This document shows positions 38,207-64,000 of a DNA stretch of 64,000 nt, piece after piece. The stretch is from an uncultured Gemmatimonadales bacterium (lineage in GTDB: Bacteria > Gemmatimonadota > Gemmatimonadetes > Gemmatimonadales > GWC2-71-9): the NCBI GenBank assembly GCA_963844035.1, contig CAWJMT010000036.1, positions 128,001 through 192,000 on the forward strand, read 5' to 3'. The position numbers and the translations under genes are program-made. Positions within the stretch are counted from its first letter, which is position 1, and each line of letters begins with the position of its first letter. Under the pieces are notes generated by a model that saw only the letters and a list, made by a program, of their open reading frames with translations, was not told where the DNA came from and searched no databases.

Positions 38207-38548
38207 ATGAACGTGCGGTCAGGGAACTGGAAAGCAGGCATCGTAGCGGCGGTGTTCGGGGTCGTTCTGGGGGCCGCACCAGCGGTTGCTCAGGCGCCTG
38301 ACGGGGCGGCGCTGTACAAGCAGTACTGCAAGGCGTGTCACGGCGCGAAGGGAATTCCGTCGAAGCAGATGGTGACGATCTACCCGGGCCTGAAGGCGTT
38401 GGCCGATAGCGGCGCGCTTGCCAAGCTTCCGACGGACACGGTGATCGCCGCGATGCAAAAGGGGAGAGGCACCACCATGAAGGCGTTCGGCGACGTGCTG
38501 TCGCCCGAGCAGATGGCGGCGGTAGCGAAGTTCACCAAGACGTTGTAG
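38207..38548 (+). CDS. Monoheme class I cytochrome c
   Basis: Signal peptide, DGAALYKQYCKACHG, distal Met in MKAF. Confidence 0.9.
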   Translation: MNVRSGNWKAGIVAAVFGVVLGAAPAVAQAPDGAALYKQYCKACHGAKGIPSKQMVTIYPGLKALADSGALAKLPTDTVIAAMQKGRGTTMKAFGDVLSPEQMAAVAKFTKTL

Positions 38549-38557
38549 CAGCCGCCG

Positions 38558-40018
38558 TCACGGGCGCAGGGGCGGTGGAAACGTATCGTAGAAGTGTGGC
38601 TCGGCGTTGCTGGTCCCCCGTAGCGCGGCCATGTACTGGGCCAGCTCTTCAATTTCCTGGTGCGAGAGTACCGGCGGCCCGAACGCGGGCATGTGCGACT
38701 CCGCATAGAACCGGCTCGGCTGCTCGATGAAGCTGTGCAGCCACCCGGCTGAGTGCCGCAACCCCACCGTCGAGAGGTCCGGGCCCACCTCGCCGCCCTG
38801 ACCAGCGATGAGGTGGCAGCCCCCGCATTGCTGCGACTGGTACAACGCGCGACCCGCTCTCTCCGCCGAGCTGAGTGCGCGGCCCGTCTCGGGGGCCGTG
38901 ATCGGGCCGCGGCCCGCCGCCCCGATCAGGATGCCGGCGCCGCCGAGAATACCGACCAAGCAGATCAATGCGAATGGCCGATGCAACAGGTTTCGGGTGC
39001 TCCCCCGATCAAAGAACGGCAGTCCCAGCAGAACCAGGATCAGCGCCGCCGGAACGCCGACCGCGATGAGGCTTTCCAGCGAGCCGGGAACAAGCTTGAG
39101 GAGCTGATAGATCGGCAGGAAGTACCACTCCGGCCGCGGCACGTAGGCCGTGTCGGTGGGGTCGGCTGGAGGATCGAGCGGAGCGCCCAGCGCGAACGCG
39201 AGCAGCACGATGACAACGACGGTGCCCGCCGATACGATGGCGTCCTTCCCCAACACGTCCGGCCAGAATCGCACCCCCCCCCGCTTGGACGCAGCGTACG
39301 CCTGTCGATAGTAGGCCGGATATCCTGGATCCCCGGTCCCCTTCGGCGCCCCCACCTCCAGGTCCTTCGGGCGCGCGGCGATGCCCTGGCGTACCACGAC
39401 CACCAGATGGAGAGCGACGAAGACAGTAATCACCAGCGGCAACCACAGGGCGTGGAAGGCGTAGAAGCGCGCCAGCGTCGCCGCCCCGAGCTCCGCGCCC
39501 CCGCGGAGTAGCGCGACCAACGCGGAGCCCAGCACGGGCGTCGTCCCGGCCATGTTCGTGCCGACGGCGGTGGCCCAGTACGCCTTCTGGTCCCAGGGTA
39601 GGAGGTATCCGGTGAAACTGAATACCATCACGATCAGGAACAGCCCCATTCCCACGATCCAGTTGACCTCGCGGGGATACTTGTACGCTCCCACGGCGAA
39701 TACACGAATCATGTGTGCGACAATGAGGACCACCATCACGCTCGCTGCCCAATGGTGGATCCCGCGCAGCAGGGAACCGCTCGCGACCTGAGTTTCGATG
39801 AACCGAATGCTCTCGTAGGCGTGATCGGGCGAGGCGGAGTAGTAGGTCGCCAGGGTCACACCGGTGATGACCTGCACGAGAAAGACGGTGAGCGTCGCGC
39901 TCCCCAGCGTGTGCCACCAGGTGAGGCGGTCGGGGACTTCGCGGTCGAGCAGATCTCGCTTGGCCCGCACGAGATCCAGTCGTTCGTCGAGCCAGCGGAA
40001 TGGGTTCATCATCATCAT
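38558..40018 (-). CDS. Cytochrome b (b6 + subunit IV regions) fused to a C-terminal cytochrome c
   Basis: His pairs H-x13-H and H-x14-H, TGYLLPWDQ, PEWY, then CGGCH...GPDL...MPAF. Confidence 0.93.
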   Translation of the reverse strand: MMMMNPFRWLDERLDLVRAKRDLLDREVPDRLTWWHTLGSATLTVFLVQVITGVTLATYYSASPDHAYESIRFIETQVASGSLLRGIHHWAASVMVVLIVAHMIRVFAVGAYKYPREVNWIVGMGLFLIVMVFSFTGYLLPWDQKAYWATAVGTNMAGTTPVLGSALVALLRGGAELGAATLARFYAFHALWLPLVITVFVALHLVVVVRQGIAARPKDLEVGAPKGTGDPGYPAYYRQAYAASKRGGVRFWPDVLGKDAIVSAGTVVVIVLLAFALGAPLDPPADPTDTAYVPRPEWYFLPIYQLLKLVPGSLESLIAVGVPAALILVLLGLPFFDRGSTRNLLHRPFALICLVGILGGAGILIGAAGRGPITAPETGRALSSAERAGRALYQSQQCGGCHLIAGQGGEVGPDLSTVGLRHSAGWLHSFIEQPSRFYAESHMPAFGPPVLSHQEIEELAQYMAALRGTSNAEPHFYDTFPPPLRP

Positions 40019-40019
40019 C

Positions 40020-40550
40020 TCAGGTCGAGGCCTTGGCGGTGACGCCCAGGTGGAAGTCCTTGTAGTCGGCATAGAGCACGCCGTCTTCGACCTTCACCTG
40101 TAAGGTGTCGAGCGGCCGCGGCGGCGGGCCCCCCAGGACGGCGCCGGTCGCGATCTCGAAAAAGCCCGAGTGGCACGGGCAGCGAAACACCTTCTTTTCG
40201 GTGTCGAGCGAGTAGTTGCACCCCAAGTGGGTGCAGCGTCCGTTGTAGACCGTGAAGTGCTCACCGTCCGCCGTGTAGATCCACACGTTGCGGAGCCGGC
40301 GGGTCTCCACCCAGGCGTCGTTGGCGGTATCGACGAAGTCCAGCTTGGTCGGGACCTCGGTCTCGAACTGGCTGACGTCCCCTAAGCGAACCCATTTCTC
40401 AGGTCGCTTTTGCCCGAAGACCGGCGAGAGGAATGCACGCGCCGCCGGAACGCCGGCGAGCAACGTGCTGAGAAATCCGCCCACCGCCGTGGCCCACTTG
40501 AGGAACGTGCGCCGGCTGGCGCGGACAACGTCCGCTGGTTGCACTGCCAT
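40020..40550 (-). CDS. Rieske 2Fe-2S subunit of a Rieske/cytochrome b complex
   Basis: Tat motif SRRTFLK, CTHLGC, CPCHSG, GPPPRPL. Confidence 0.95.
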   Translation of the reverse strand: MAVQPADVVRASRRTFLKWATAVGGFLSTLLAGVPAARAFLSPVFGQKRPEKWVRLGDVSQFETEVPTKLDFVDTANDAWVETRRLRNVWIYTADGEHFTVYNGRCTHLGCNYSLDTEKKVFRCPCHSGFFEIATGAVLGGPPPRPLDTLQVKVEDGVLYADYKDFHLGVTAKAST

Positions 40551-40577
40551 GGTGCAGACCTCCTGGGAGTTCCGTTC

Positions 40578-41994
40578 CTACGGCGTCGGGATCGCGGTGC
40601 CGTGACAGACCGTGCACATCTGGGGATTCTTCTGCTTCAACCGCTCGGCGTCAAATCCCGGCCCGTGGGGGTTGAACCGGCGGCCCCCGTTGGCGGAGTG
40701 ACACGGGAGGCAGTCGCGCTCGACGTGGCAGGAGACGCAGGTCTCGAGGCTCTGCCGCGCGGCCTGGCCGTGGCCCCCAATGAAGTTGCTGTTGGCGTCA
40801 TGAAAGCCGCCCCGCAGTGTCCGCGAGCTCACCAAACCGGCCGTCGCGTGACAGGTCGTGCAGAAGCCCGCGGGATTGTGGCACTCGCTGCACGACGTCT
40901 CGCGCGCGTAGGCCGCCGCGGGGTGGCGGGCCAGGAATGCGGTCGGATGATATCCGGGCCCTGTCCCCGCATCCAGCCGGTGGCACTCGAGACAGTTGGA
41001 CTGCACGTGGCACCCGGCGCACGTGGCCGGGGTCCGGGCGGCCATCGCCCCGTGACCGCGCGCGAAATCCGGTCCGTGAAACACCGGACGGTGGCGCGCG
41101 ATGATCGCTCCGATCCCGCGCCCCGCGCCGCGGGTCGGGAGCGCCGCGGCGACGCGCGGCGTGCCCACGTGGCAGGTGAGGCAGCTCTCCCGTGCGTGGC
41201 AGCTCGAGCACTGAACCGGTGCACTGCGCGCCGTCGCGCCGTGGCGGTTGAGGAACGCCGGCTCGCGCGTGCGATGGGGGCGCTCTGAGGTGCACCACGA
41301 TTGCGGTCGAGCGTGGGTCACTCGGCAGCGCCTGGATCGCAGCGCGCTCCGGCGCGTCCACGTGGCAGGTGAGGCAGAACTCCCGCGCGTGACAGGTGGC
41401 GCAACTCGCCGCTACGGCGGCGTTCCTGCCACCGCTCTGCGCGGCCCTGGCGTGCCCGCCGCCGCCGACCCAACCCGCCTCCTGGTGCGAGGGCGGGGTG
41501 GGGAACCCGGCGATGTCTTCGCGCGTGAGCGCTTGCGCTTCCGCGAGGGGCAGGTGACAGACGGTGCATGCGGTGTCCGGCGCCGCGAGATGCGCCGTAC
41601 GCACGCCATGACAGTTGAGGCAGCGTCCAAAATTCACGCGCTGCACCGCCATCCACGTGCCGTCGTCCGAACCGTGACAGACCGTGCACCCCGGGGGCCC
41701 GGGTTGGCCTGCGCGCACCATTATCGGCACGAGGGCGTGATCGAACCGCAGATTCGTCCGTCGCGGTCCAGCCGGCGGACGCCAGTTCACCCGCGGCTTT
41801 ACCGTACCGTCATGACAGGTCGCGCACGCCGCGGGATCGGGATACAACGACCCCTCGCCGGTCGCCGGCTGCGCGTGACAGGCTGTGCAGGTGGGGAACA
41901 ACCGGCGGTGTTTCTCATGATCGAACCGCTGTGCCTGCGTCTGTTGCGCGGCCACTCCCCGCCCGGGGTGCACGCCCAAGGCGAGGGCTACCAT
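40578..41994 (-). CDS. Multiheme cytochrome c, 16 CxxCH, one frameshift near 41265; start approximate
   Basis: 7 CxxCH in the 40798..43233 ORF and 9 in the 40578..41321 ORF; signal-like N-terminus (VAA-QQ). Confidence 0.88.
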
Positions 41995-42014
41995 CAGGAC
42001 GTGCCGCAGTGCGG

Positions 42015-43529
42015 CTATGGGGAGGTCCCCGGCGAGCGCGGCATCTGCAGCACGGCGGGCGGGAGTCGGCTGAGATCCGCGCCGCTTGCCAACACAAACA
42101 CGACCCGAGCGCTCACGCGCACCTGGTCCCAGCTGAACGCCGCGGCGTCGGGGCGCTTCCGATCCTCGTCGTACCGGCTGGCATCCAGCTCGACCCGCAC
42201 TCGAGACGACGACCGATACTGGGCATACACGCCATACGTGCGGACCGACGATTCGTCGAAGCGCAGCTCCAGGGGGCGATCCAGCATGCCGCCGTGGGCG
42301 GCGACCGTGAAGAAGTCGGCCGGCGCGTACGCAACGCCCGCTTCGAAGCCGCGCGACGATGCTCCCGGGCCGAATTCGGAGTGGTAGCCGCCTTGCACCG
42401 TCCACTTCGGGGGCAGGGTGTAGACGGCGTTCCAGGAGAACCGCCACCCGTCGCTCTCGACGTTCACCGTCGGCGTCGCGGCTTCGGCGTTCGCGAACGA
42501 GTAGCGCTCGCCGCTGGCGCGGAGCGCGAGATGGCGGATCGGCGTGACAGCAAGCGAAGCGTCGAACGCCGTGTAGGGCACCGGCGCGAATGCTCCCCAG
42601 ATGGTCCACAAGTCGAAGTGCGGGCGATAGCGCCGCACCGCGGCGGAGGCGTTGACGCGGCCGTTCGGTGCCGCGTACGCGAGCGTCCCTTCCGCGCTGC
42701 CCCACCACCCTTGCGCCATGTCGTATTCGGCCCCGCCCGAGAGGGTCACGCCGCGATAGGGTCGTACGCCAGCGTCGACGCCGATTCGTTCCGCCACGAA
42801 GTAGTGGACGCTTGGGTCCACCTCGCGCTCGTAGGTGAGCCTGACGTCCCCGTGAGACGTGGTCCAGCCGGCACCGCCGCCGGCGACGACCATCCGCTCC
42901 GGCGGGCGGTACTCGTCGAGCGGGTTCAGCGCCGGGCTGGTGACGGGAAGCACCGAGCCGCGCCACAGCCCCCAACCTCCGTAGCCCGTGACATCGAGGC
43001 CGAGGCGGCGGTCGCGCAGGGTGAGCCGGCCGCCGTCGAATCCGGTGAGCCCGAACCGTGTCGCCACCGTCTGTCGGCCCAGCTGGACGGTCATGCGCTC
43101 CACCGCGTATTGCGCGTAGCTCTCGAGCAGCTGCGCCGATGGCTCTGTCCCGGGCCAGGGATCGGCGCCGCCGAACGAGCCGGCGAGCCGTGCGATCGCG
43201 TGAATCGAGAGGCCCGGTAACCCGAGACCCCACACCGTCAGGTCTGCATTACCGGTCACCGGACGTGCGTCCTGCTGCAGCCCCGGCCGGAAGAAGCTGC
43301 AATAGGGGCTCCCCGCAACGCAGTCCACGGCGAAGCCGTCCGGCGTGGTCGGCCCGCCCGACAGCCCGGTCACGGTGTCGCCGACCGGGATGCTGTCCAG
43401 CTGGACGCCGCGGTAGGCCACGGCCTGCGCGCGGGTGTCGACGCGCAACCGGTAGCCCTGCGCCAGCCCGGACCGGGGGAGGGCGATCGCGAGAATCAGC
43501 AGCGGCGCCGCGATTCGGCGGGGGATCAC
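42015..43529 (-). CDS. Putative outer-membrane beta-barrel (porin of a porin-cytochrome complex)
   Basis: Signal peptide (GLA-QG), ~500 aa heme-free, rich in alternating Y/W/F strands; sits between multiheme genes, with its start overlapping the upstream stop. Confidence 0.68.
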   Translation of the reverse strand: MIPRRIAAPLLILAIALPRSGLAQGYRLRVDTRAQAVAYRGVQLDSIPVGDTVTGLSGGPTTPDGFAVDCVAGSPYCSFFRPGLQQDARPVTGNADLTVWGLGLPGLSIHAIARLAGSFGGADPWPGTEPSAQLLESYAQYAVERMTVQLGRQTVATRFGLTGFDGGRLTLRDRRLGLDVTGYGGWGLWRGSVLPVTSPALNPLDEYRPPERMVVAGGGAGWTTSHGDVRLTYEREVDPSVHYFVAERIGVDAGVRPYRGVTLSGGAEYDMAQGWWGSAEGTLAYAAPNGRVNASAAVRRYRPHFDLWTIWGAFAPVPYTAFDASLAVTPIRHLALRASGERYSFANAEAATPTVNVESDGWRFSWNAVYTLPPKWTVQGGYHSEFGPGASSRGFEAGVAYAPADFFTVAAHGGMLDRPLELRFDESSVRTYGVYAQYRSSSRVRVELDASRYDEDRKRPDAAAFSWDQVRVSARVVFVLASGADLSRLPPAVLQMPRSPGTSP

Positions 43530-45458
43530 GAGCCGCCATCCTCCCGCAGGTGAGTCTGGAATGCTTCGGGGCTGCTCCCGAAATGGCACAGCGTGCATTC
43601 CTTGTCCCGGTAATGCTCCTGCCGCGCTGCGTGACATGTGAGGCACAAGCCCCGGTCGGGAACGAGCCGCGCGACGATCGCGGCATCGTGGCATGCGTCG
43701 CAGGCGGTGTGCGCTTCCGCAGGGGGTGCATGCGCCGCACGCACGGCTGTGGATCCGCCGTCGTTGTGACACACGGCGCACGGTTTCCCCGCCGCGTGGT
43801 GGTTGTCATGACACGCGGCGCACGTCGCGACCGCCGGCTGCGGCTCGAGGGTGGCGGGCGTGGTGTGACAGGTCACGCACTTCAGGGTGCGGTGCCGGTC
43901 GTGCTCGAAACGGGCAGGGTGGAGCCGCGGCTCGCTGCCGGCTACGGCGACGCGCACGGCAACCGAGTCAGGCCGCGTCACTTCGCTCGCGGCGTGGCAC
44001 TTCGCACAGTCGCTCGTTTGCGGCGCCTGGTGGTGGCAGATCTGGCACCCCCGGGGGGCTTCGAACGTGAGGCGGTTGCGCGCGCTCTGCGACGCGTGGC
44101 AGGTGATGCACGAGAATTTCTTGTGGAGGCCGTGCGGGAAGCTGTCGGCGGCCGCCTCACCGCCGCGCGGGTCGCCCCCCGCCGGCGGACCCCCAAAAAA
44201 AGGTCCGTGCCCAGAGTCCTCATCCGGGCTCCCCCGGGATGCAAGGCGCAGCGGGGGTGATGTGGTGAGGTGCGACACCCGCCGCAACGCCGCCGCGGTA
44301 TCGAACGGCAGCGGGGGATTCATCCCCTTCCCGCCGCGGCGTTGCTTGACTTCGGCGTGGCAGCTGGCGCAGTCGCTCGGATCGACTTTGGCGTGATGGG
44401 GCTCGTGACACAGCGTGCAGTTCTCGCCCACCCTGCGGTGGTTCGTGCCGACGTGAAAGGCGTCGGACCGCCAGTCGGCATGGCATTTGGCCGAGGTGCA
44501 GGTGCGCGCCGCTTCGGCCGGGCTCGCCTGCGTATGGGGATTGTGGCAATCACCGCAGGTGCCCCGGTGCGGGTCGCGCGCCGGGTCGAACTCGGCGAGC
44601 ACAGCCTGCATCTCGTGACACGAAAGGCACTGCTTCATGCTGGGGACGAGCGTACCGCGCGCAGAGTCGCGCGTCGCAAGCAGGGGGACTTCCGCCGTGA
44701 AGCGATGGCACACGACACAGTGCAGATCCGTCTGATCTCGCATCTTGGCCAGCGTTGATCTCCATGCGCGCATGGCATCCGGACTGGGCGCATGTCGCGT
44801 TCACCGGAACGAAGCGATGGACCTCCATGCCGTGACACGTGACGCACTGCACGTTCTTGAGCGCGCTGGAATCGGACTCGAGGTGGGTGCGGTGACCGGC
44901 CGTGGAGGCGATGCGCTGCCACTTCTCCTTCGCGTTGCCCTGGACGTGGCAGCTGCTGCACACGCTCGTCGCCACCTTGGCGTGCGTGCCGATCTCGGTC
45001 GGCCGGTCGGCGACCCATAGATAGAGCTGCCGCATGCTGGCGAACATCGATTGCTGATGGCAGTTGTGGCACTCGAGCGAGTCGTGTTTGGAGCCGGCGA
45101 ACCGCTGAAACGGCGCGTTCATCACGTGGCAGCCGGTGCAGAAGCCGTTGTTGTGATTCACGTAGTGCATGCTTACAGCGCCGCCGCCGGCAGCCGCGAG
45201 CACCACGACGCCCGCGCCTGCGGCGAGCCCGAGTTTGGTGCTGCGTGGCAGCGAGACGAGCCACAGGTAGATGGCGACGCGGGAGCGCCACAGCAGCGCC
45301 AGGACCGCCAGCGCGACCAGCACCCCGACGATGAATCCCGCGATTTGGAACCACTGAGGAAGATTGAAGAAGAACCGCAGCACGGCGGCGACGCCGCCGG
45401 GCAGCGGCGGCTGCCCGACGGCCACCTGCTGGGGTGTCACGCCTGACCCCTCTCCCAT
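43526..45458 (-). CDS. Membrane-anchored multiheme cytochrome c (18 CxxCH + 2 Cx4CH) with NapC/NrfH-like N-terminus; one frameshift near 44750
   Basis: Two N-terminal TM helices, then FCTGCHVM (CxxCHxM); motifs counted across two ORFs. Confidence 0.88.
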
Positions 45459-45485
45459 GGGAGGGGGCGCTCGAGCGACGGCAAA

Positions 45486-47081: not shown

Positions 47082-47143
47082 GGATGTTGCTTCCTTTCTA
47101 CTCTATGGGCGTGCTGACGGCACTCGGGCGTTGGGAGCGGGCC

Positions 47144-47810
47144 CTAGTCCCCGCTCTTTCGAGCCGGTCGCGTTGCAGCACCAGTGCTCTTGAGGTACAT
47201 CAGAACGTCCTGCCCCTCTGTTGGCGTGAGCGGCTTGACCTTCATCCGCTCCATGTTCCGCTCCATGCGAGCGAAGACGGTCGGCCAATCTTCCTTCGAA
47301 TGCTGACGCATGTCGGGCAACGCGTGGCAGCGGCTGCAGACCTGTGCGTACGTCTCGCGCCCTTTCCCCGCCGGAAGTACTGAGCCGCTGATCTTGAGGG
47401 CGTTGCCGGTGAGGTACTTCAGGATTTCGTACCGCTCCGCCGCGCTCGTTACCTTCACCCCTAACGACTCGGGAAGTTCATCCATGCGGATCCACATGCG
47501 TCGCGTCACGCCTGGCCAATCGGTCGCGCTGTGGGCCGTCGGGGCCGGCAACGCGTGGCACTGCGCGCAATACGTCGCGAGGACCTGTGCTCCCCGGGAG
47601 TTCGGGCTCCGGGAGGTCGCCCGGCTGAACGCCGGCCGGCGGCAGTGCGATGCTGGCGGCTGCCAAGAGCAGTTGATCGCTGTGACTGAGGGGCGGCGCG
47701 ACGGTCTGCGTCGCCTGCTCAGTGGTCGGGGCCCGCGGGGCCTGCTGGCATGCCGCCACGATGACTACCGTGAGACCCATCAACAGTGCTCCGGCCGGAA
47801 TCCGTCGCAT
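47144..47810 (-). CDS. Diheme cytochrome c lipoprotein, one frameshift near 47600
   Basis: Lipobox VAAC; two repeats, CAQCHALP.P..HS..DWP and CSRCHALP....HS..DWP. Confidence 0.82.
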
Positions 47811-53770: not shown

Positions 53771-53992
53771 TCACGCCGTCTTCCCGAGCAGGATGAGCAC
53801 GGCGACCACGAACCCGAGAATGACCATCGTCTCAGGGATCGCAATCATCAGGATCGCCGTGGTGGAAAGCTCGGGCTTCTCGGCCATGCTCGCCGCGATG
53901 GCCGGTCCGATGCGGGACTGCGCCCACGCGGTTGCGAGCGCGGGGATCGCCACGGCGAGGGCCGCAGCCAGTACGGTAAACAGGACGTTCAT
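53771..53992 (-). CDS. ntpK: V/A-type ATP synthase subunit K (c-ring proteolipid, single hairpin, 73 aa)
   Basis: ATAWAQSRIG...AEKPE...IPETMVILG; own RBS (AGGAG) upstream. Confidence 0.92.
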   Translation of the reverse strand: MNVLFTVLAAALAVAIPALATAWAQSRIGPAIAASMAEKPELSTTAILMIAIPETMVILGFVVAVLILLGKTA

Positions 53993-55909: not shown

Positions 55910-56274
55910 GCCCCAACTCCGATCGCGCGCTCCACGACGTAGCGTGCCAGGGCGTCGATCTGTTCGGGGCCGGTCTGGTCAAAACGCAACGCGTCGCGCC
56001 GCGCCGCCTCCATGACCTCCTGCTCCTGTCGTTGCCGCTCGGCCTCGATCGTTGCCTCGAGTTCGCGACAGATCGCGTCGATACTGGCTACCAGGGCGGC
56101 CTCGCGTGCCGCCGCAGCCTCCTGCGCGGTGGTGATCAGTCCCGCTGCTTGCGCCCGCGCGCGGCACAGCATCTCCTCGAGCCGGGCCTCGGCATCGAGC
56201 AGTCGCGACAAGTCCGCAGCCCCCTCAGAGGGAGCGGACGGGCTCGACTGCTTGCTCTGCGAACGACGGATCAC
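55906..56274 (-). CDS. Probable V/A-type ATP synthase subunit G/H (peripheral stalk)
   Basis: Short Ala/Glu-rich coiled coil; first gene of the operon, overlapping the subunit I start. Confidence 0.7.
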   Translation of the reverse strand: MIRRSQSKQSSPSAPSEGAADLSRLLDAEARLEEMLCRARAQAAGLITTAQEAAAAREAALVASIDAICRELEATIEAERQRQEQEVMEAARRDALRFDQTGPEQIDALARYVVERAIGVGA

Positions 56275-56368
56275 CAGAATGTGCTCCGGTGCGGTGTGTG
56301 ACTACAGTCTCGCTGGAAGCGAGTCGGGCAAGAGTGAAGAAGACAGAAAGATTCCTTCATGCGGGTAC

Positions 56369-57259
56369 ATGACCGTATCGCGGCGTGACGTCTGGGTACG
56401 GATGCTCCTGTACCCGCGCCATACGCTGCCGACGGCGGCGGCGCCGGTGCTCGTCGCCCTGGGGCTCGCGCGGCGTGACGGCATGACGGCGTGGTGTCCC
56501 GCGCTGGCGGCGTTCGTCGCGGGGTGGCTGGTGCAGCTCGGCGGCGTCATCGCCGACAACTACTTCAACCTCACCCGCCATCCCGAAGATCGCGAGCATG
56601 CGCTCTTCGTGCAGGCGCTCAATGCGGGTGTGGTGAGCCTGTTGGAGCTCCGGCGTGCAATCTGGGCCTGCTACGCCGGGGCGGCGGTGGTGGGCCTTTA
56701 CCTCATCTCCGTAGGTGGCCTGCCGGTGCTCGTTGTGGGGCTCGCGAGCATCGTCGCGAGCCTGGCCTACTCGGCCGGCCCCCGCCCGCTCGGCGACAAC
56801 GGCCTGGGGGATCCGCTGTTCTTCTTGTTCTTCGGCATCGTGTCCGTGACGGCCACCTACTACGTGCAGGCGGGCGCCGTAACGCACCTCGCGCTCGTCG
56901 CGAGCCTGCCGGTCGGGGCCCTGACCACGAACATCCTCGTCATCGACAACATCCGCGATCTGGAGCACGACCGCGCGAAGAACGAGCGCACCCTTGCCGT
57001 GCTCATCGGGCCGCGCTGGAGTCGGGCGGAGTATCTCGTGCTGCTTGCGATCGGGTACGCGATCCCGCTCTGGATGTGGCTCGATTGGGGGGTGGGGCGC
57101 CTCGTGTTGCTTCCGCTGTTGTCGATCCCGTATGCGGTGGTGGTCGCGCGGCGGGTGCTGCGCGCGCGGACCCACGACGAGATGATTCCCCTGACCCCGC
57201 AGGCGGGACAGGTCCTGCTCGCGTACTGCGTTCTATTCGGGGTCGGCCTCGCCGCCTGA
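56369..57259 (+). CDS. menA: 1,4-dihydroxy-2-naphthoate polyprenyltransferase (MenA-like)
   Basis: HTLPTAAAPV, YSAGPRPL...GLGD..FFLFFG, NIRDLEHD...RTLAV.IG. Confidence 0.82.
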   Translation: MTVSRRDVWVRMLLYPRHTLPTAAAPVLVALGLARRDGMTAWCPALAAFVAGWLVQLGGVIADNYFNLTRHPEDREHALFVQALNAGVVSLLELRRAIWACYAGAAVVGLYLISVGGLPVLVVGLASIVASLAYSAGPRPLGDNGLGDPLFFLFFGIVSVTATYYVQAGAVTHLALVASLPVGALTTNILVIDNIRDLEHDRAKNERTLAVLIGPRWSRAEYLVLLAIGYAIPLWMWLDWGVGRLVLLPLLSIPYAVVVARRVLRARTHDEMIPLTPQAGQVLLAYCVLFGVGLAA

Positions 57260-57266
57260 CCGGGCC

Positions 57267-58352
57267 TTACGCGCCGTCACGGCGGGGGTAGTCCGTGTAA
57301 CCCCGCGCGTCCCCACCATAGAACGTGCTCGGATCGGGCTGGGTAAGGGGGGCGCCCGCGGCGAATCGCTCGGGGAGATCGGGGTTGGCGATGAACGGCC
57401 GCCCGAACGCGACGAGGTCCGCGGCGCCGCTCGCGACCGCGCCGTCGGCTGACTCCTTCTTGTAGCCACCGTTCGCGATCAGCGGGCCCCGGAATCGAGC
57501 ACGGAGTAACGGCGTGATCGGGGGTGCGGGGACCGCTGGTTCGAGCGGCTCGAACACGTGGAGGTACCCAAGGCCGAAGCCGTTGAGCGCGGCGGCCGCG
57601 TGTCCGAAGGTGGCCGCGGGGTCGCTGTCTGCCATGTCGTGCAAGGGACTGGCGGGCGAGAGCTGAATCCCCACGCGTCCTTCCCCCCATGCCTCACACA
57701 CCGCCTGCGTCACCTCGAGCAAGAATCGCACGCGGTGCTCGACCGGTCCGCCGTATGCGTCCGTGCGGCGATTCGATCCGTCACGCAGGAACTGGTCGAT
57801 CACGTATCCCTGCGCTGCGTGCAGCTCGACGCCGTCGAAGGCGGCGTCGTGGGCGAGGCGCGCGGCGCGCGCGAACTCCCCCACGATGTCTCTGATCTCA
57901 CCGAGATCGAGCGCGTGCGGCACGACGAAGGGTTGACGACCCAGCGGGGTTGCGATTGTGCCGGCCGGCGCGATGGCGGACGGGCCGGCCGGCGAAACGC
58001 CATCGGGAAGCACCGCCGGGTGCGTCGCCCGGCCGGCGTGCCAGAGCTGCAGGAATATCCGACCGCCGCGGTCGTGCACTGCGTCGGTGACCTGCCGCCA
58101 CGCGCGGGCATGGGCGTCGCTGTAAATCCCCGGGGCTCCCTCGGATCCGATGCCACGAGGCGAGATCCACGTGGCCTCCGTAATGATCACCCCCGCCGAG
58201 GCGCGTTGCGCGTAGTACTTCGCCATGAGGGGCGTGGCGAGACCGCCCGCCGCGGCGCGGCGGCGGCTCATTGGTGCCATGACGACGCGGTTGGGCAACT
58301 CGAGGGGCCCGAGCTGGACGGGGGAGAGGACGCCAGGAGGGGACGGGGTCAT
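57267..58352 (-). CDS. Old yellow enzyme / alkene reductase (NemA-like)
   Basis: NRVVMAPM, YYAQRASAG, QLWHAGR, DQFLRDGSNRRTDAYGG, FGRPFIANPDLPERF. Confidence 0.93.
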   Translation of the reverse strand: MTPSPPGVLSPVQLGPLELPNRVVMAPMSRRRAAAGGLATPLMAKYYAQRASAGVIITEATWISPRGIGSEGAPGIYSDAHARAWRQVTDAVHDRGGRIFLQLWHAGRATHPAVLPDGVSPAGPSAIAPAGTIATPLGRQPFVVPHALDLGEIRDIVGEFARAARLAHDAAFDGVELHAAQGYVIDQFLRDGSNRRTDAYGGPVEHRVRFLLEVTQAVCEAWGEGRVGIQLSPASPLHDMADSDPAATFGHAAAALNGFGLGYLHVFEPLEPAVPAPPITPLLRARFRGPLIANGGYKKESADGAVASGAADLVAFGRPFIANPDLPERFAAGAPLTQPDPSTFYGGDARGYTDYPRRDGA

Positions 58353-58475
58353 GGACGGCAAGATGCACGATATCGCGATTGTCCGTCACCCTGAGGCACC
58401 CCTCATACCACCTTTAGGCCACGTTCAGCACCGCCTTCCTACATATGGACACGTCATCCAACTGCCAGGTGTCCC

Positions 58476-59648
58476 ATGCTGATCGATCGGTATCTCCCGC
58501 GCTTCGACGTAACCCAGATCTGCGAGGTGAGGGTTGACGCCCCACCCGATGTGACCTACCGCGCCATTCGCGAGGCGGACCTGAGCGATCCACTCGTCAA
58601 CGCGCTGTTCGCGATCCGTGAGTTTCCCCTCCGCATGGCGCGCCGGTGGCGCGGCGTGGCGGCCCCGCCGGCACCCGCGAAGGTGATGTTCGGAACCATG
58701 ATCACCGCGGGGCCGGGGTGGGTGCTGTTGGCCGAGGAGCCCGGTGTTGAATTCGTGGTCGGATCGGTTGGCCGGTTCTGGCGGCGGGACTACGGTGGCC
58801 GGCCGTTCCAGACCGATGAGTTCGTCACGTTTCACGAGCCGGGGTACGCGAAGTTGGCGATCACCTTTTCGGTCCAGCGCGCCGCGACCGGTGGGACGAT
58901 GCTTCGCTACGAAGCGCGGACCGCTACCACAGATGCGGCGGCGCGGCGGACGTTCCAGCGGTACTGGCGCGTCATTCGTCCCGGCGTCGCGTTGGTGATG
59001 TGGCGCGCGCTGCGGAGCATCAAGCTCGAAGCGGAGCGGCGGGCGGGCAAACCGGCGCCGTCTCACGCCGGGTGGCTCGATACGGTAAACCCGGTGCGCG
59101 CGACGCCTGTCGAGCGAAACCGGTCGCTACCAGGCGATCAGCTGATTCCGGAGGCGATCGGCTCGTTCACCCACGCCATCACCGTGAAATGCGAGCGACG
59201 GGATCTGTGGCCCTGGCTGGCGCAAATGGGTGCGGGCCGCGCCGGCTGGTACAGTTACGACTTCATCGACAACGGCCACGAACCCAGCGCCATGGAGGTC
59301 CGGCCGGACCTGCAGCAGATCGGGGTCGGGACTCTCTTCCCCGGGCTGCCGGGCGTGCAGGATGGGTTCCGCGTCGTGGAGTGTGAGCGGGAGCGGGCGC
59401 TCGTCCTCGGCTGGCCGTCGCCCGACGGCTCTTACGGGTCCACATGGGCGTTCGTGCTCGAGGATGCCGGACCGGGTTGCACCCGGCTGATTGCGCGCGC
59501 TCGTGGCGCCCATGGCTATCAGTTCCACCATCTGCCGCTGTGGCTCATCAAGGCGGGGCACTACGTCATGCAACGCAAGCAGCTGCGTGGGCTCGCGTGG
59601 CGGGCCGAGCACCGCACGCCCCCCGTGCCTCTGGAGACATGCGCTTGA
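58476..59648 (+). CDS. Two-domain protein: DUF2867-like + SRPBCC-like
   Basis: N-domain ...EPGYAK...RTATTD..ARR.F.RYW; C-domain LPGD.LIP...WPWLAQMGAGRAGWYSYD...MQRKQLRG. Confidence 0.75.
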   Translation: MLIDRYLPRFDVTQICEVRVDAPPDVTYRAIREADLSDPLVNALFAIREFPLRMARRWRGVAAPPAPAKVMFGTMITAGPGWVLLAEEPGVEFVVGSVGRFWRRDYGGRPFQTDEFVTFHEPGYAKLAITFSVQRAATGGTMLRYEARTATTDAAARRTFQRYWRVIRPGVALVMWRALRSIKLEAERRAGKPAPSHAGWLDTVNPVRATPVERNRSLPGDQLIPEAIGSFTHAITVKCERRDLWPWLAQMGAGRAGWYSYDFIDNGHEPSAMEVRPDLQQIGVGTLFPGLPGVQDGFRVVECERERALVLGWPSPDGSYGSTWAFVLEDAGPGCTRLIARARGAHGYQFHHLPLWLIKAGHYVMQRKQLRGLAWRAEHRTPPVPLETCA

Positions 59649-60355
59649 CGTCGCGTCATCGGATTCGCTCAGCCGCCTCCTGGCTCGGCGTTGGGATCGC
59701 GCTCACCGCGGCGACATACGCGGCGTATGCCGCGGTCGCGTGGCTGCGGTACGGCACTCCGTCGCAGCCGGCCCGGCCGGAAGATGCGGACGCGCTGCTC
59801 GATCGGTTCATTCCTTCTTATGAGGTGGCCGAGCGCCACCACGTGCGGGTTGCCGCGCCGGGCACGATCGTCCTCGGTGCGGCGAAGGACATGGACCTGC
59901 TGCATGCGCCCCTCGCGCGGTGGATCTTCCGCGGGCGGGAGCTCGCGATGGGCAGCACACCCGACACTCAAGTGCGGCCGCGGGAGCTGCTGCCGCTGGT
60001 GCAGTCGCTCGGGTGGGGCATCCTCGCCGAAGTCCCCGGGCGGGAAGTGGTGGTAGGCGCGGTCACGCAGCCGTGGGAGGCGAACGTGGTATTTCGGTCT
60101 CTTCCCCCCAACGAGTTCGCGGCATTCAACGAGCCGGGGTGGGTGAAGATCGTGTGGACGCTACGCGCCGATCCGCTCGGGGCGGATGAGTCCGTCTTCC
60201 GTACGGAAACGCGCGTCGCCACCACCGATCGCGAGGCCCGTGCCAGGTTCCGCCGCTATTGGGCATTCGTCTCGGCCGGGATCGTTCTGATCCGGTGGAT
60301 GATGCTCGAGCCACTCAAGGCCGAGGCCGAGCGCCGGGCGGTGGCGCACCCGTGA
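59639..60355 (+). CDS. DUF2867-like protein with N-terminal TM helix; paralog of the upstream N-domain
   Basis: LLDRFIP.Y, GWGILAE.PGRE.VVG, EPGWVK, TETRVATTD..AR.RFRRYW. Confidence 0.75.
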   Translation: MRLTSRHRIRSAASWLGVGIALTAATYAAYAAVAWLRYGTPSQPARPEDADALLDRFIPSYEVAERHHVRVAAPGTIVLGAAKDMDLLHAPLARWIFRGRELAMGSTPDTQVRPRELLPLVQSLGWGILAEVPGREVVVGAVTQPWEANVVFRSLPPNEFAAFNEPGWVKIVWTLRADPLGADESVFRTETRVATTDREARARFRRYWAFVSAGIVLIRWMMLEPLKAEAERRAVAHP

Positions 60356-61269
60356 AGCGCGCGAGCGAGTTGTGGCTGTCGGTGCTGATCGTCGTGCTCG
60401 GCGTGCCCGTTCATCTCACCGGCTTGCTTGTCCCGACGATTTACCGCGACCCGGCCGTGCTCTTGCCGCAGAACCTGGGCACGGACCTGGTCACTCTGCT
60501 GGTCGGTCTCCCGCTGCTCGCCGCTTCAACAGTCGGCATGCGCGCGGGGTCGCTGCGCGCCCGCATCCTCTGGCTGGGCGCCCTCGGACTGTTGGTCTAC
60601 GTCTACGGGATGTATGCGCTGGGGGTCTGGTGGAACGAGCTGTTCCTCGTCTACGTCGCGCTGTTCGGTCTCTCGCTGTTCGCGTTGATCATCGGGCTCG
60701 TGAGCACGGACGCGGTGCGGATTCGCGCCGGCTTCGTCATGCAGGCCCCGGTACGGTCGGTGGCCGCGTACCTGATCGCGATCGCAGGTATGGTGGCAGC
60801 GATGTGGCTTGCGGAAGAAGTGGGTGCGCTGCTGCGCAGCACGGTGCCGCCGACGGTGCTGCAATTCGAGGCCCCCACGAACATCGTTCACGTGTTCGAC
60901 CTGGGTCTAGTCCTGCCCGCCATGGTCCTCGCCGCCCTGATGCTCCTGCGGGACCAGCCGTGGGGTTACGTGCTGGCGGGGATGCTGCTCGTCAAGGCGG
61001 CATCCATCGGCCTCTGGGTGGTGGCCATGATCTGGTTCTCCGCTCGACAGGGGTTCGGCGCGCCCGCCGCGTACACAGGGTTCTTCGTGTTGTTGACCAT
61101 CGCCGGCGGCATACTGAGCTGGCGCTTCTTGCGCGCGCTCAAGCCGCTCCGAACGCCGTGTCGCCGCTCGCTTCTCTCACCCTCCATCGAGCGAGGACCC
61201 ACCAATGACCACTGCAACCGCCGCGATGCGCCCTCCAGGCGCTTGGGCGCAGGATCCGCCCCTGGATAG
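60352..61269 (+). CDS. Hypothetical polytopic membrane protein (C-terminus possibly frameshift-extended)
   Basis: About 8 hydrophobic helices, GTDLVTL, NELFLVYV, VHVFDLG, PWGY. Confidence 0.78.
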   Translation: MKRASELWLSVLIVVLGVPVHLTGLLVPTIYRDPAVLLPQNLGTDLVTLLVGLPLLAASTVGMRAGSLRARILWLGALGLLVYVYGMYALGVWWNELFLVYVALFGLSLFALIIGLVSTDAVRIRAGFVMQAPVRSVAAYLIAIAGMVAAMWLAEEVGALLRSTVPPTVLQFEAPTNIVHVFDLGLVLPAMVLAALMLLRDQPWGYVLAGMLLVKAASIGLWVVAMIWFSARQGFGAPAAYTGFFVLLTIAGGILSWRFLRALKPLRTPCRRSLLSPSIERGPTNDHCNRRDAPSRRLGAGSAPG

Positions 61270-62182
61270 ACCTTCAGGAGCTGCCGAAGCATCTCGCCAA
61301 CGTGCTCCCGTTCCTGCTCGGCACAACGCTCGCGTACTGGCAGGCCGGGCGAATCGACTGGCTGGTGTTCGGCGTGGCATTGGTCGCGCTGTTCCTGCTC
61401 ACCGACGGCACGTACATCGCCAACGAGTACTTCGACTACGAGAACGACAAGCTGAACGTCGGCCGCATCGGCGGCGCCGACGCGGTGGGCGTGACGACGA
61501 CCGGTGGGACGCGCGTGCTCGTCAAGGGACTGATCCCGCGGCGGCACGCGCTCATCGCCGCCGTGAGTCGCGTTCCTCCTGGCGATCCCCGTCGGGTTGT
61601 TTCTCCGGTTCGGACTCGGCACCGGTCCGCTGACGATTCCGCTTGGGCGTGCTGGCGGTCTTCATCGGCTGGTTCTATACCGCTCCACCGATCAAGGCAT
61701 GCTACCGCGGCTTCGGCGAAATCTTCATTGCGGTGGGGCAGGGGCTCGTGGTGTTCGGCGCGTACTACGTGCAGCTCGGGTTTAGCACTCTGCCGTTGAT
61801 CGTGTCGTTGTCCTGGTTCATTGCGCTTCCGGCCCTCAAGATCATCCGTGAGTTCCCGGACTACGACGCCGATCGCGCCACCGGCAAACGCGGTCTGACG
61901 CTCCGGTTCGGCCGCGAGCGAATGGCCGTCGTGTACGACATCCTCATCGTCCTGGCGGTGCTGGCGTTCATCCCGACGTATTTCGTGCTGCGGTCACCCG
62001 CGTATTGGGCGGTACTGCTGCCGGCGTACTTCCTGCTGCGCAGTGTGCGCCTGACCATGGCGGGGGGCTGGCGTGTGCCGGACCGACTGGAGGCGGGCGC
62101 GGCGGCAGGATTCATCGGCATGCTGCTCATGCCGCTGGCGCTGACGGCCGCGTTCCTGGGTGCTGCGGTGCTGGGGCGGTGA
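61205..62182 (+). CDS. Second UbiA/MenA-family prenyltransferase, about 3 frameshifts
   Basis: ANEYFDYEND, TGGTRVL, FYTAPP, EFPDYDAD...GKR.L..RFG across three ORFs. Confidence 0.8.
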
Positions 62183-62237
62183 GTACCCGATCGTTCCTCA
62201 TCAGCACATCCGCACAATCACCCGGCCAGCAGCAGCA

Positions 62238-62444
62238 TCACCGCGAGTGCGACAGGCATCGCGGTGATGCTATCCGGCGCGGGCGGCGACCGCCCCGAGC
62301 TTTCCAGGCGCGGACCTGCGCAGCGAGCTTGGGCGGCATCGAGCGGCACGCACAGTGTTTCGCGTGGGCGTCGTGCCACGAAAGCCGCTGCGAGAGCGTC
62401 GCGTTGGGCGGCATCGGGTGTTTGGCGTGCCAGGTCGCGTTCAT
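62238..62444 (-). CDS. Small His/Cys-containing hypothetical protein
   Basis: MNATWHAKHPMPPNATLSQRLSWHDAHAKHCACRSMP; directly follows the upstream stop. Confidence 0.65.
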   Translation of the reverse strand: MNATWHAKHPMPPNATLSQRLSWHDAHAKHCACRSMPPKLAAQVRAWKARGGRRPRRIASPRCLSHSR

Positions 62445-62451
62445 ATGCATC

Positions 62452-63018
62452 CTACCGGATGTGACGGACGACGCCCAGCACGAGACCGATGTCGTTCCGC
62501 GTTTCAGACTCCTGTCCGGCGAACGGCGGCTGATAACAGTAGATGTTGCCGCGCGCCTCGAGCCGCACCGCCGTCTTGCCGGCCTGCAGCTCGGCGCCTA
62601 CGGCGCCGTATCCTGCCGTGCACGTATTGTTCGACACGTTCGGGTCGGCGTATGCGTACGTCCGGCCACCAGCTCCGAGGGCGACGAACGGTTTGAGGAG
62701 ATGCTCTCCATAGACCAACCGAGTGAGACCCACCTCGATCCCCAGCGTGTACTGCAGAATGCTGACGTGGGGGTTGGTGAACGCGTACTCGACCTCGCTC
62801 GGCGCCCAGCCGAACGATGCGACCGCATGCACGGCCGGCCGCAACTCCATCGCTGCCTCCAGGCCCAGGATGGGGGCGTCGGTGAACAGGTCATGTTGTG
62901 CACCCGTCGCAATCAGGGCACCGGTGAACCCCCGAATCTCGGGAGTGGACCTCGCCTGGGCCGGCAGCGCGGTTGCCGCCGCCACGAGCAGTCCGAGTAA
63001 AACCGCAACCGATTTCAT
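62452..63018 (-). CDS. Small outer-membrane beta-barrel protein
   Basis: Signal peptide (LPA-Q), KPFVALGAG, AVRLEAR; AAGGAGG RBS. Confidence 0.7.
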   Translation of the reverse strand: MKSVAVLLGLLVAAATALPAQARSTPEIRGFTGALIATGAQHDLFTDAPILGLEAAMELRPAVHAVASFGWAPSEVEYAFTNPHVSILQYTLGIEVGLTRLVYGEHLLKPFVALGAGGRTYAYADPNVSNNTCTAGYGAVGAELQAGKTAVRLEARGNIYCYQPPFAGQESETRNDIGLVLGVVRHIR

Positions 63019-63306
63019 GGGTCCTCCTTATGCCGAGGTGAGGCAGAACCGAACCATCGTACTGGGTGAACGATGGCGGTGCGTTTGTTACGTCAGCGTG
63101 AACGGAATGTGATGGTGGCGTCAGAGAGGGCCGAAGGCTCGGTGCGCCGAGTTGACGAACACCGTACATCGGTGGATGATTTGCTGGTGGGAGGACTGAC
63201 CGCTTGATGAAGACCTCTTCATACGGCCTTCGCGACAGTCAGGCGACCAGTCCCCTAGTGTAGCTCCGGCAGCGTCACGCTGTACCACCGCCTTCGGAGA
63301 CTCCGC

Positions 63307-64000
63307 ATGTACCTCCCCACGTCGCACCCGTGGGCGGAAGGCGAAACCCTCGGCGCATACCTCGAGAAGCGAGGTGTGAGCCGCCGGGATTTCCTCGCCT
63401 TTTCCGCCAAGATGTCCGCCGTTCTCGGTTTCAGTGAACTCATGACCCCTCGGATCGCGACGGCGCTCGCGGCTGTCAAGCGCCCGAGCGTCGTGTGGAT
63501 CTCCCTGCAGGAGTGCTCCGGCTGCACCGAGTCGGTGCTGCGCACCGCCGATCCGACGATCGGCGACCTCGTGCTCGACGTCGTGTCGCTCGATTTCCAG
63601 GAGAACCTGATGGCGGCCGCGGGATTCGCCGCGGAGACCGCGCTCCATGACGCCATGAAGAAAAACTTCGGCGAGTACGTGCTGATGGTGACGGGCTCGG
63701 TCCCGCTCAACGAGGGCGGCGTCTACACGACGGTCGCCGGACGTCCGGTGAAGGAGCTGCTCGAAGAAGCGGCGAAGGGTGCCAAGGCCGTCATCGCGGT
63801 GGGCGCCTGCGCGCATTGGGGCAACATCCAGGCGGCGCGGCCCAATCCCACCGGCGCCGTGGGCGTGAGCGACATCATCAAGGACAAGCCGGTCGTGAAC
63901 ATCGCGGGGTGCCCGCCGATCGGCGACGTGGTCACGGCGACCATCGTTCACTATCTGACGTTCGGCAAGATTCCCGCGCTCGACTACGAAGGGCGGCCGA
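63307..64000 (+). CDS. Group 1 [NiFe]-hydrogenase small subunit (HybO-like), 3' end runs off the window
   Basis: Manual translation: MYLPTSHPW...GVSRRDFL (Tat)...QECSGCTES...GACAHWG...PNPTGA...NIAGCPP; not in the ORF track. Confidence 0.95.
   Translation, partial: MYLPTSHPWAEGETLGAYLEKRGVSRRDFLAFSAKMSAVLGFSELMTPRIATALAAVKRPSVVWISLQECSGCTESVLRTADPTIGDLVLDVVSLDFQENLMAAAGFAAETALHDAMKKNFGEYVLMVTGSVPLNEGGVYTTVAGRPVKELLEEAAKGAKAVIAVGACAHWGNIQAARPNPTGAVGVSDIIKDKPVVNIAGCPPIGDVVTATIVHYLTFGKIPALDYEGRP

Follow-up and report, generated by a model that had tools for sequence, protein, structure and literature searches.

Gene content and organization of the cluster

The window analyzed here is a stretch of 64,000 nucleotides (C36:128001-192000; contig CAWJMT010000036.1) from assembly G000 of an uncultured Gemmatimonadales bacterium (3.47 Mb, 39 contigs, 83.7% complete). 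Region 38207-64000 of the window is a conserved accessory cluster of Gemmatimonadetes that encodes an uptake hydrogenase, a V/A-type ATPase and a porin-multihaem cytochrome operon. The original prediction, made from the letters of this DNA, described a cytochrome operon, a complete V/A-ATPase, two MenA-like genes and a hydrogenase small subunit with a twin-arginine translocation (Tat) signal as clustered; all four components are present within these limits and recur together in independent genomes. Gene calls are based on Pfam and NCBIfam scans, plus comparison with intact orthologues in relatives. The numbered G genomes are class-level relatives, and f1, f2, f3, f5 and f8 are family labels.

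The cluster consists of: (i) a minus-strand run from 56274 to 38558, in which nine V/A-ATPase genes are followed, after a 190-bp gap, by the cytochrome operon, (ii) a variable insert of ~7 kb with two MenA-like genes, an old yellow enzyme (OYE), three hypothetical proteins and an outer-membrane protein (OMP), and (iii) a plus-strand hydrogenase operon that starts at 63307 and runs past the window end, where the small subunit gene (hydS) is followed by the large subunit gene (hydL), a cytochrome b, a protease, hypABFCDE and an enoyl-CoA hydratase. The insert, ~7 kb of the 26 kb, is lineage-specific filler.

The V/A-ATPase genes are ordered G(H), I, K, E, C, F, A, B and D (56274-48000, all on the minus strand). 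Eight subunits have Pfam matches, while G/H (55906..56274) has no family match in the Pfam and NCBIfam scans; its assignment comes from its position and from its 40-57% identity to relatives. With it, the V/A-ATPase has nine genes, as predicted. The other subunits are I (54028..55909, PF01496), K (53771..53992, PF00137), E (53076..53652, PF01991) and C (52081..53070, PF01992), the latter two with frameshifts and an approximate lower end, F (51726..52056, PF01990) and A (50002..51721, ends approximate, Walker A motif GGFGTGKT present), each with one frameshift, B (48623..50002), whose orthologue in the congener G004 passes NF003235, and D (48000..48626, PF01813). This subunit set and its catalytic motifs are of the V/A type and are intact in congeners. 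Subunit K is a single 73-amino acid (aa) hairpin which, when aligned to the K ring of Enterococcus hirae, keeps Gln and Glu-Thr and has Met and Leu in place of the Gln65 and Tyr68 of the E. hirae Na+ site. A PETM(V/A)ILG-type motif that is devoid of Tyr is found in 17 of 17 K sequences. As K has an incomplete set of Na+ ligands, the V/A enzyme is predicted to be H+-coupled, by the criterion of PMC2359735.

The original prediction regarded the cluster as accessory to a standard F-type ATPase and an aerobic chain, and both are encoded elsewhere in the genome, the latter by an alternative complex III (ACIII)-like locus, an aa3-type oxidase, a second haem-copper oxidase locus and a bd oxidase. Coexistence of V and F types is described, e.g., for Anaeromyxobacter (PMC2359735). 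NosZ scores over the cut-off in none of the five genomes searched, and the molybdopterin matches of G000 are ActB-like and NuoG-like. Directly upstream of the aa3-type oxidase operon lie genes for a cytochrome-bd-subunit-I-like protein and c-type cytochromes (C9:31181-35551; L133).

The hydrogenase is a group 1 [NiFe] enzyme, and its small subunit HydS (63307..64000 and continuing, plus strand) carries a Tat signal and is anchored at its C-terminus; the G004 orthologues match TIGR00391 and TIGR02125. Subgroup 1f of HydDB is a tentative lead for the placement of the enzyme. The two supernumerary proximal-cluster Cys that mark the O2-tolerant group 1d are both absent; each of the 37 small-subunit rows compared, some of them duplicates, has Gly and Asn/Ser there instead. 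The enzyme is not of the Hyd-2 type either, because the hydrogenase operon has no hybA or hybB. Thus, of the genes that the original prediction proposed to look for downstream, hydL and the hyp genes are present, whereas a b-type cytochrome subunit, the third hydrogenase gene (TIGR02125 over cut-off in G004), takes the place of HybA/HybB. In several relatives, hypE is followed by a formyltransferase and an enoyl-CoA hydratase (G017, L082:10525-12193; G090, G217, G112, G211, G049 and G071), while G000 has the hydratase alone (C36:201154-201988). The CO-making maturase HypX is made up of these two domain types; it is not among the PDB matches listed for the separate formyltransferase and hydratase. 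A HemG-like menaquinone-dependent protoporphyrinogen dehydrogenase is encoded beside hydS in G004 (L017:9418-9993), G001, G003 and G005 and was not found in G000.

The cytochrome operon (47810-38558, minus strand) has 45 CXXCH motifs, counted over three frames, and encodes in order: (i) a dihaem cytochrome c lipoprotein (47144..47810, one frameshift), (ii) an 8-haem protein with a lipobox (45486..47081, three shifts that restore the frame), (iii) an 18-haem cytochrome that is membrane-anchored by a NapC/NrfH-like N-terminus (43526..45458, one assembly frameshift; PF03264, with TIGR03153 below cut-off), (iv) an outer-membrane β-barrel of ~22 strands (42015..43529), (v) a 16-haem periplasmic cytochrome (40578..42018, one assembly frameshift), (vi) a Tat Rieske [2Fe-2S] protein (40020..40550; PF00355, PF10518), and (vii) a cytochrome b with PEWY present and a fused C-terminal monohaem c domain (38558..40018; PF00033, PF00032, PF00034). 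A monohaem cytochrome c (38207..38548, plus strand; PF13442/PF00034), also found in G001, G002, G004 and G017, is convergent with the operon. Cytochrome c maturation genes are present in the genome. The 8-haem gene, the barrel gene and the 16-haem gene form a constant core in relatives, where the barrel is always encoded beside the 16-haem protein. The inner-membrane side is variable and is represented by the 18-haem protein, by Rieske/cytochrome b, or by a module of cytochrome b, 9-, 21- and 11-haem proteins and b561. Haem counts are steady among homologues (16 in 26/26 full-length proteins; 8 in 38/40, with 9 in the other two; 17-19 in 25).

The barrel is modeled by AlphaFold2 as a plug-less structure of 22 strands (mean predicted local distance difference test score, pLDDT, of 82.9). 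Its orthologue has no Pfam or NCBIfam family match, and no common Pfam family is found for the barrel across 30 Atlas clusters, of which the top three are mostly from Gemmatimonadota. The barrel family comprises 1375 matches among 7997 candidates scored; of 19 loci with titled relatives, 18 are from Gemmatimonadales/Gemmatimonadota metagenome-assembled genomes (MAGs) and the remaining one is a weak 45-aa match. The 8-haem lipoprotein is related by hidden Markov model profile to 6QVM (E 7e-17), to OcwA (6I5B, E 4.6e-15) and to MtrA (E 7.6e-11), and its structural model (pLDDT 78.3) finds only OcwA below E 1e-3 in Foldseek (6i5b, E 7.6e-5, template modeling (TM) score 0.36). OcwA is a cell-surface terminal reductase that resembles reductases of soluble acceptors (PMC6703420), and OmhA, with 11 haems, is the dominant surface cytochrome on ferrihydrite (PMC7829351). 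From the match of gene length to the latter text, 6QVM (681 aa) is taken to be OmhA of Carboxydothermus.

Other multihaem loci are noted in these genomes. A second porin-multihaem-like cluster of G000 (C36:13152-24846) encodes a flavoprotein reductase-like protein, a ferredoxin, a membrane protein, 20- and 16-haem proteins and a barrel-like protein, and has a 12-bit copy of the motif described below. The multihaem modules of G002 (L014:5810-8430), G027, G192 and G217 each have a B12-dependent radical SAM gene as a neighbor, joined in G002 by one for an ArsA-like ATPase.

Distribution and evolutionary history

The distribution of the cluster was surveyed in 220 genomes of the class Gemmatimonadetes, each at least 90% complete, with V/A presence called by a B subunit match at E 1e-90 or better, and with at least 63% and 65% identity defining the close types of hydS and V/A, respectively. 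The V/A B subunit is found in 24 of the 220 genomes, 23 at ≥65% identity and one divergent (G033, 47%), which is left out of the 23 carriers considered below. Related hydS genes are found in 53 (41 of the close type, 12 weaker) and the barrel gene in 93. All 23 V/A carriers have both the close hydS and the barrel, such that the predicted association of the modules holds across the class. The barrel is present in 52 of the 53 carriers of any related hydS compared to 41 of the 167 non-carriers. Fisher p values are 2e-20 for V/A and 2e-23 for hydS and barrel; these overstate the association because the genomes are kin and not independent. The association of V/A with hydS also holds inside families (14/14 in f1, 6/6 in f8).

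Linkage, counted as location on the same contig within 35 kb, is common among the 23 carriers: V/A and hydS are linked in 15, V/A and barrel in 14, hydS and barrel in 16, all three in 12, and at least one pair in 21, and the linkage spans families f1, f2, f5 and f8. The hydS gene is directly divergent from the V/A operon in G002, G015, G143, G175, G149, G219, G228, G217, G112 and G214, and from the 8-haem gene in G021, G012, G022, G068, G109 and G211. Exceptions include G123, in which the V/A operon adjoins the conduit but is 307 kb from hydS, and G022, G068 and G109, in which it is on another large contig. Comparison with relatives thus reveals conservation of the cluster in many genomes and its absence from others. 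In the congener G006 (93% complete), the shared flank leads into unrelated genes, and hydS, V/A, the barrel and the regulator are all missing.

The cluster is an accessory feature of long standing in the class. Gene trees of vaI (26 rows, without G000) and hydS (34 rows) each place the genus in one clade and agree on close pairs, while families are mixed at depth in the vaI tree; given this mixing and the patchy presence, the cluster may have been transferred within the phylum. The term island, as used in the original prediction, is not borne out in the sense of foreign DNA: the guanine plus cytosine (GC) content of the window is 64-74% with no step at the cluster, no tRNA is found in the window, no boundary repeats are found at the cluster, and the genus is a clade in both trees. 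Rfam matches are likewise absent across 36-64 kb of the window.

The G000 copy of the cluster is frameshifted. Frameshift-aware alignment of the G004 proteins identifies 27 shifts in 26.5 kb, affecting 16 of 31 genes, compared to 36 shifts in 48 kb and 14 of 53 genes in control regions of the same assembly, with F1 alpha and gamma among the latter. The count based on high-scoring segment pairs is 0.26/kb for the cluster vs. 0.18-0.30/kb for the controls. Congeners have intact copies of the genes shifted in G000. The shifts are read as assembly or sequencing indels that occur genome-wide, although none of the 27 is near a homopolymer run of ≥4; no reads of the G000 strain were found to check them. 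Pseudogenization of the V/A operon is disfavored, as the shift density (1.02/kb) compares to 0.75/kb in controls that include essential genes. A 712-aa 'I-K fusion' open reading frame (ORF) is an artefact of a frameshift in subunit I. Outside the cluster, the ORF at 30766-34566 (1266 aa) is similarly an artefactual fusion, by one frameshift, of a membrane-fusion protein and an AcrB-type gene. A chimeric contig is rejected because the same linkage recurs in independent genomes.

A shared motif and a candidate regulator

In family f1, the region upstream of hydS has a palindrome, TGAAG-N4-CTTCA, which is often accompanied by additional half-sites spaced ~11 bp apart. The motif matrix was seeded with TGAAG/CTTCA, as picked by eye, and then refined on the regions upstream of 24 hydS genes, G000 excluded; de novo Gibbs sampling recovered the motif out of register. 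Due to this seeding, the scores at hydS are partly circular, while those at vaG and at the regulator described below are independent tests. In G000, a perfect site precedes hydS (63207..63222; 17.7 bits with G000 left out of training, top 0.2%), and a second site of this type lies between vaG and menA1 (56345..56360; 15.6 bits, top 0.5% of 1943 upstream regions). Of the eight V/A promoters of f1 that are separate from hydS, seven score 15.6-18.5 bits, not all independently, because three congeners have an identical site. The hydS upstream regions of family f8 (L097, L099, L105, L116 and L101) have, by eye and unscored, TGGGG-N4/5-CCCCA instead. Promoter and terminator scans are at chance level, and no terminator-like site is listed in the 190-bp gap between vaD and the dihaem gene.

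Intergenic sites of ≥13 bits are concentrated near the cluster, with 9 of 37 located in an 85-kb block (C36:160-245 kb; p 2e-7). This block is rich in genes for universal stress proteins (USP, by Pfam) and, as named from translations, for CBS, BON, Dps, Hsp20 and chaperonin proteins. An Hsp20 gene (37555..38037, minus strand; PF00011), the usual flank of the cluster, is just outside the region, with a motif copy ahead of the gene next to it (37548-37563). The strongest motif copy of the genome (22.7 bits, C37:57010; L132:9010) is between small divergent genes that are OsmC-like and DUF302-like by appearance.

The block also includes a regulator locus ~40 kb past the window (C36:231358-234394; L131:3358-6394) that encodes a GAF-HisKA kinase, an OmpR-type regulator and a second HAMP kinase. 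Among 11 relatives, nine have the motif 44-69 bp before the regulator at 18.7-23.8 bits, while the other two, both of f3, score 12.1 and 1.7 bits; the score in G000 is 13.5 bits. The regulator thus looks autoregulated. The top PDB matches of the kinase are the GAF domains of DosT (E 2e-41) and DosS (E 4e-36), with the proximal haem-ligand His aligned and also present in the G000 kinase fragment. In the two mycobacterial proteins, this residue is His149/His147 (PMC4082495), and the kinase has both the GAF-A domain and the His that characterize these sensors. The shared motif suggests a hypoxia regulon, and the kinase/OmpR pair is a candidate hypoxia regulator of f1 that is apparently undescribed. 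Among public sequencing runs, no RNA run is listed with the cluster, and 10 DNA runs are listed at shares of 0.05-0.09; the four DNA runs examined hold only short pieces of relatives and have no bearing on expression, habitat or the frameshifts.

Menaquinone and the variable insert

The original prediction reasoned that MenA is needed for the menaquinone that the hydrogenase would reduce, a claim that does not hold here. Of 41 genomes, 37 have MqnC, which exceeds the cut-off in 33 (G000 among them), and an MqnP-type prenyltransferase scores over the cut-off in 5 of 5 genomes, including G000. MenD scores over the cut-off in 0 of 5 genomes (G000 being 84% complete; MenB, MenF and MenC were not searched). 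Judged from these genes, menaquinone is made by the futalosine route and, as a result, MenA is not required. MenA-like genes are found in 9 of the 41 genomes, 4 over cut-off, and four of the nine are without MqnC. Of the five carriers that have MqnC, four (G000, G001, G017 and G022) have the gene inside the cluster and the fifth is G014; G211 also carries a MenA-like gene. No MenA-like gene is part of the intact clusters in G002, G004 and G015. The MenA-like genes are thus recurrent optional passengers. DmkA serves salvage of external 1,4-dihydroxy-2-naphthoate (DHNA) in Firmicutes, and a similar role for the MenA-like genes is, by analogy, a guess.

The first MenA-like prenyltransferase (56402..57259, plus strand) scores 127.5 against the TIGR00751 cut-off of 102.15. 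While canonical MenA motifs are ND-first, MenA1 has DNYFN and DNIRD in their place, which hints at a distinct substrate or subfamily. The second (~61205..62182, plus strand, start approximate; PF01040) is frameshifted and is 77-90% identical to a G017 gene that adjoins the hyp genes. The remainder of the insert comprises the OYE family flavin oxidoreductase (57267..58361, minus strand; PF00724), which is missing from the clusters of relatives, three hypotheticals (58476..61269, plus strand), two of which are paralogous and one of which is also beside vaG in G004 and G005, and the small OMP β-barrel (62452..63018, minus strand; weak PF13505 match).

Proposed function and alternatives

The cluster is very likely a conserved low-oxygen module; HemG, an O2-independent haem enzyme, is counted for this reading by its place beside hydS in four congeners. 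The full mechanism, in which low O2 induces the cluster, H2 and other reductants are respired to extracellular acceptors and ATP is made by a second, H+-type synthase, has in our estimate about an even chance of being correct. According to this scheme, the DosT/DosS-like haem-GAF kinase would sense falling O2 and phosphorylate the adjacent OmpR-type regulator, which would then bind TGAAG-N4-CTTCA. The hydrogenase would oxidize periplasmic H2 and reduce futalosine-derived menaquinone via its own cytochrome b. Menaquinol may be oxidized by the 18-haem, NapC-like protein together with the Rieske/cytochrome b complex; the electrons would then travel via the 16-haem protein and the barrel and reach the OcwA-like 8-haem lipoprotein, the predicted reductase of Fe(III), humics or similar acceptors outside the cell. 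The V/A enzyme is envisioned to make ATP at the lower proton motive force of the H2 chain, while the F-ATPase would serve aerobic growth.

Several observations weigh against this scheme. The motif is absent from 7 of 7 V/A promoters outside f1 (none above 4 bits), is not found before the G000 cytochrome operon (best scores -0.7 and 2.6 bits), and reaches ≥13 bits before only 7 of 35 8-haem genes and before none of 8 dihaem genes; the conduit could therefore join the regulon only by read-through or from another promoter. The kinase occurs in 34 of 42 f1 genomes, more widely than the cluster, and is thus a family-wide sensor into which the cluster plugs. The likeness of the barrel to MtrB (6r2q_B), its top Foldseek match among many barrels, is generic (TM 0.41, 10% identity), and the fold of the 8-haem protein is also NrfA-like. 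On the side of distribution, 41 genomes carry the porin without the hydrogenase, 18 of the 41 carriers of close-type hydrogenase are without V/A, and the divergent V/A of G033 has neither partner. Finally, a cbb3 oxidase operon adjoins the V/A and cytochrome modules of G027 (L026:11047-19416) and G192 (L103), a neighborhood that would suit an inward flow of electrons, or use under microaerobic conditions, just as well.

The direction in which the V/A enzyme runs bears on the first alternative, in which the low-oxygen regulon is the same and the enzyme is an ATP-hydrolyzing H+ pump that keeps membrane potential or pH in anoxic dormancy. The neighboring block is dormancy-like (USP, Hsp20, Dps and hibernation-factor-like genes), an F-ATPase is already present, and bacterial V-ATPases often hydrolyze ATP. 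This role is nevertheless unlikely, as the single-hairpin K matches in size the 73-74 aa K of the Thermus enzyme, a synthase (PMC2359735), and the strict dependence of V/A on a respiratory hydrogenase (23/23) suits energy conservation better. The direction of the conduit could likewise be reversed, with reduced humics or Fe(II) and H2 serving as parallel donors to menaquinone or cytochrome c and then to high-affinity oxidases under microoxia. The Rieske/cytochrome b and monohaem c proteins can link to oxidases, of which G000 has bd and two haem-copper loci, the cbb3 operons of G027 and G192 are beside the cluster, and PCC-type (porin-cytochrome complex) systems occur in Fe(II) oxidizers (PMC5566968). 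By contrast, the 8-haem lipoprotein is nearest to terminal reductases (PMC6703420, PMC7829351), NapC/CbcL-like modules are usually quinol oxidases (PMC6295460), and the hydrogenase is without the Cys of O2 tolerance, which together render inward flow less probable again.

Three independent hypoxia traits, clustered by a shared regulator and by gain and loss as a block with no direct coupling of H2 to the surface, would account for the 41 genomes with porin alone, the shuffled gene order and swapped inner-membrane modules, the mixing of families in the vaI tree, and the many unrelated stress genes of the block. The near-perfect nesting of V/A within hydrogenase carriers and of these within porin carriers, together with the recurrence of divergent hydS-8-haem or hydS-vaG pairs in four families, places this alternative below inward flow in likelihood. 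Least probable of all is that the multihaem proteins serve to reduce a soluble acceptor, be it nitrite, hydroxylamine or a sulfur compound, with the barrel as a solute channel: the 8-haem protein weakly matches octahaem nitrite reductases and NrfA, the N-terminus of the 18-haem protein is NrfH-like and OcwA itself resembles soluble-acceptor reductases (PMC6703420), but the NrfA/octahaem matches (E 1e-5 or weaker) are far behind those to OcwA and 6QVM, and the plug-less 22-strand barrel is always encoded beside the 16-haem protein.

Each part of the proposed H2-to-surface chain is of a known kind, and the combination, assembled from known parts, is real, conserved and probably co-regulated. More tentatively, and with the balance of probability somewhat on the other side, a sizeable minority of Gemmatimonadetes may be facultative hydrogenotrophic metal or humic reducers with a full alternative chain (hydrogenase, a conduit specific to Gemmatimonadota that leads to an OcwA-like reductase, and a V/A synthase dedicated to low proton motive force), a DosT-like kinase/OmpR switch and a regulated swap between F- and V/A-synthase. 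Gemmatimonadota are abundant in soils and sediments, are mostly uncultured and are described as aerobic heterotrophs. The main text of a phylum survey includes only F-type ATPase and aerobic respiration and, by term search, leaves hydrogenase, iron and menaquinone unmentioned (PMC10581226). No description of the three-module cluster or the motif was found in the literature covered, which excludes most subscription papers and may exclude supplements that annotate the genes. If the proposal is true, these bacteria would take part in the cycling of iron, humics and H2 under anoxia, given that the cluster is in ~10% of class genomes and the conduit alone in ~40%, and H2 plus Fe(III), anthraquinone-2,6-disulfonate (AQDS) or an anode would offer a route to enrichment. 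The swap between F- and V/A-synthase would then be set by the available respiratory energy. The proposal also offers an explanation, open to test, for the retention of both ATPase types in some bacteria, and it names a candidate regulator and its putative site.

Relation to known systems

The hydrogenase resembles E. coli Hyd-1 and the membrane-bound hydrogenase (MBH) of Cupriavidus in having a Tat small subunit with C-terminal anchor, a large subunit, a b-type cytochrome, a protease and hyp genes, and differs from both in the absence of the two extra Cys of the O2-tolerant proximal cluster. The ATPase shares with the Thermus thermophilus-type V/A enzyme the nine subunit types and the single-hairpin 73-aa K without a full Na+ ligand set; unlike in Thermus, it is accessory to an F-ATPase, is found in ~10% of the class and is tied to a hydrogenase.

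The candidate regulator is similar to the mycobacterial DosS/DosT-DosR system (PMC4082495) in its haem-GAF sensor with proximal His and its neighborhood of USP, Hsp20 and CBS genes. The system described here differs in that its kinase has one GAF domain with HisKA (PF00512) and its DNA motif is another. Its regulator is of the OmpR/PhoB type (PF00486), while DosR is of the NarL type.

The putative conduit resembles porin-cytochrome systems in general in its gene arrangement, with the gene for a large outer-membrane barrel next to those for multihaem cytochromes. Like MtrCAB (PDB 6R2Q), PCC3, PCC4 and the PCCs with petB/petC, it combines in one operon a barrel flanked by periplasmic and lipoprotein multihaem cytochromes with a quinone-active inner-membrane module. 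The barrel differs from that of MtrCAB (~22 strands, 480 aa, no common Pfam family, no sequence match to MtrB), and its partners are 16- and 18-haem proteins and not a decahaem MtrA, which sets the operon apart from MtrAB/MtoAB. The 8-haem lipoprotein matches OcwA of Thermincola potens (6I5B) and 6QVM in sequence and fold; these are Gram-positive cell-wall proteins with more haems (9 in OcwA), whereas the protein described here is an 8-haem diderm lipoprotein paired with a barrel. PCC3 and PCC4 were defined by He et al. (2017), PCC4 having 4-, 5- and 10-haem periplasmic cytochromes, no extracellular cytochrome and a five-helix inner-membrane protein (PMC5566968). The haem counts of the operon (2/8/18/16, with lipoproteins; 8/18/16 compared to 10/10 in MtrCAB and 4/5/10 in PCC4) are distinct, no five-helix protein is seen, and the inner module is swappable. 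PCCs with petB/petC are reported from MAGs in a text that names no Gemmatimonadota carrier (PMC13264449). One CbcL-type and two ImcH homologues have been counted in Gemmatimonadetes (PMC6295460), and it is CbcL that the cytochrome b, 9/21/11-haem and b561 module of relatives resembles in domain content.

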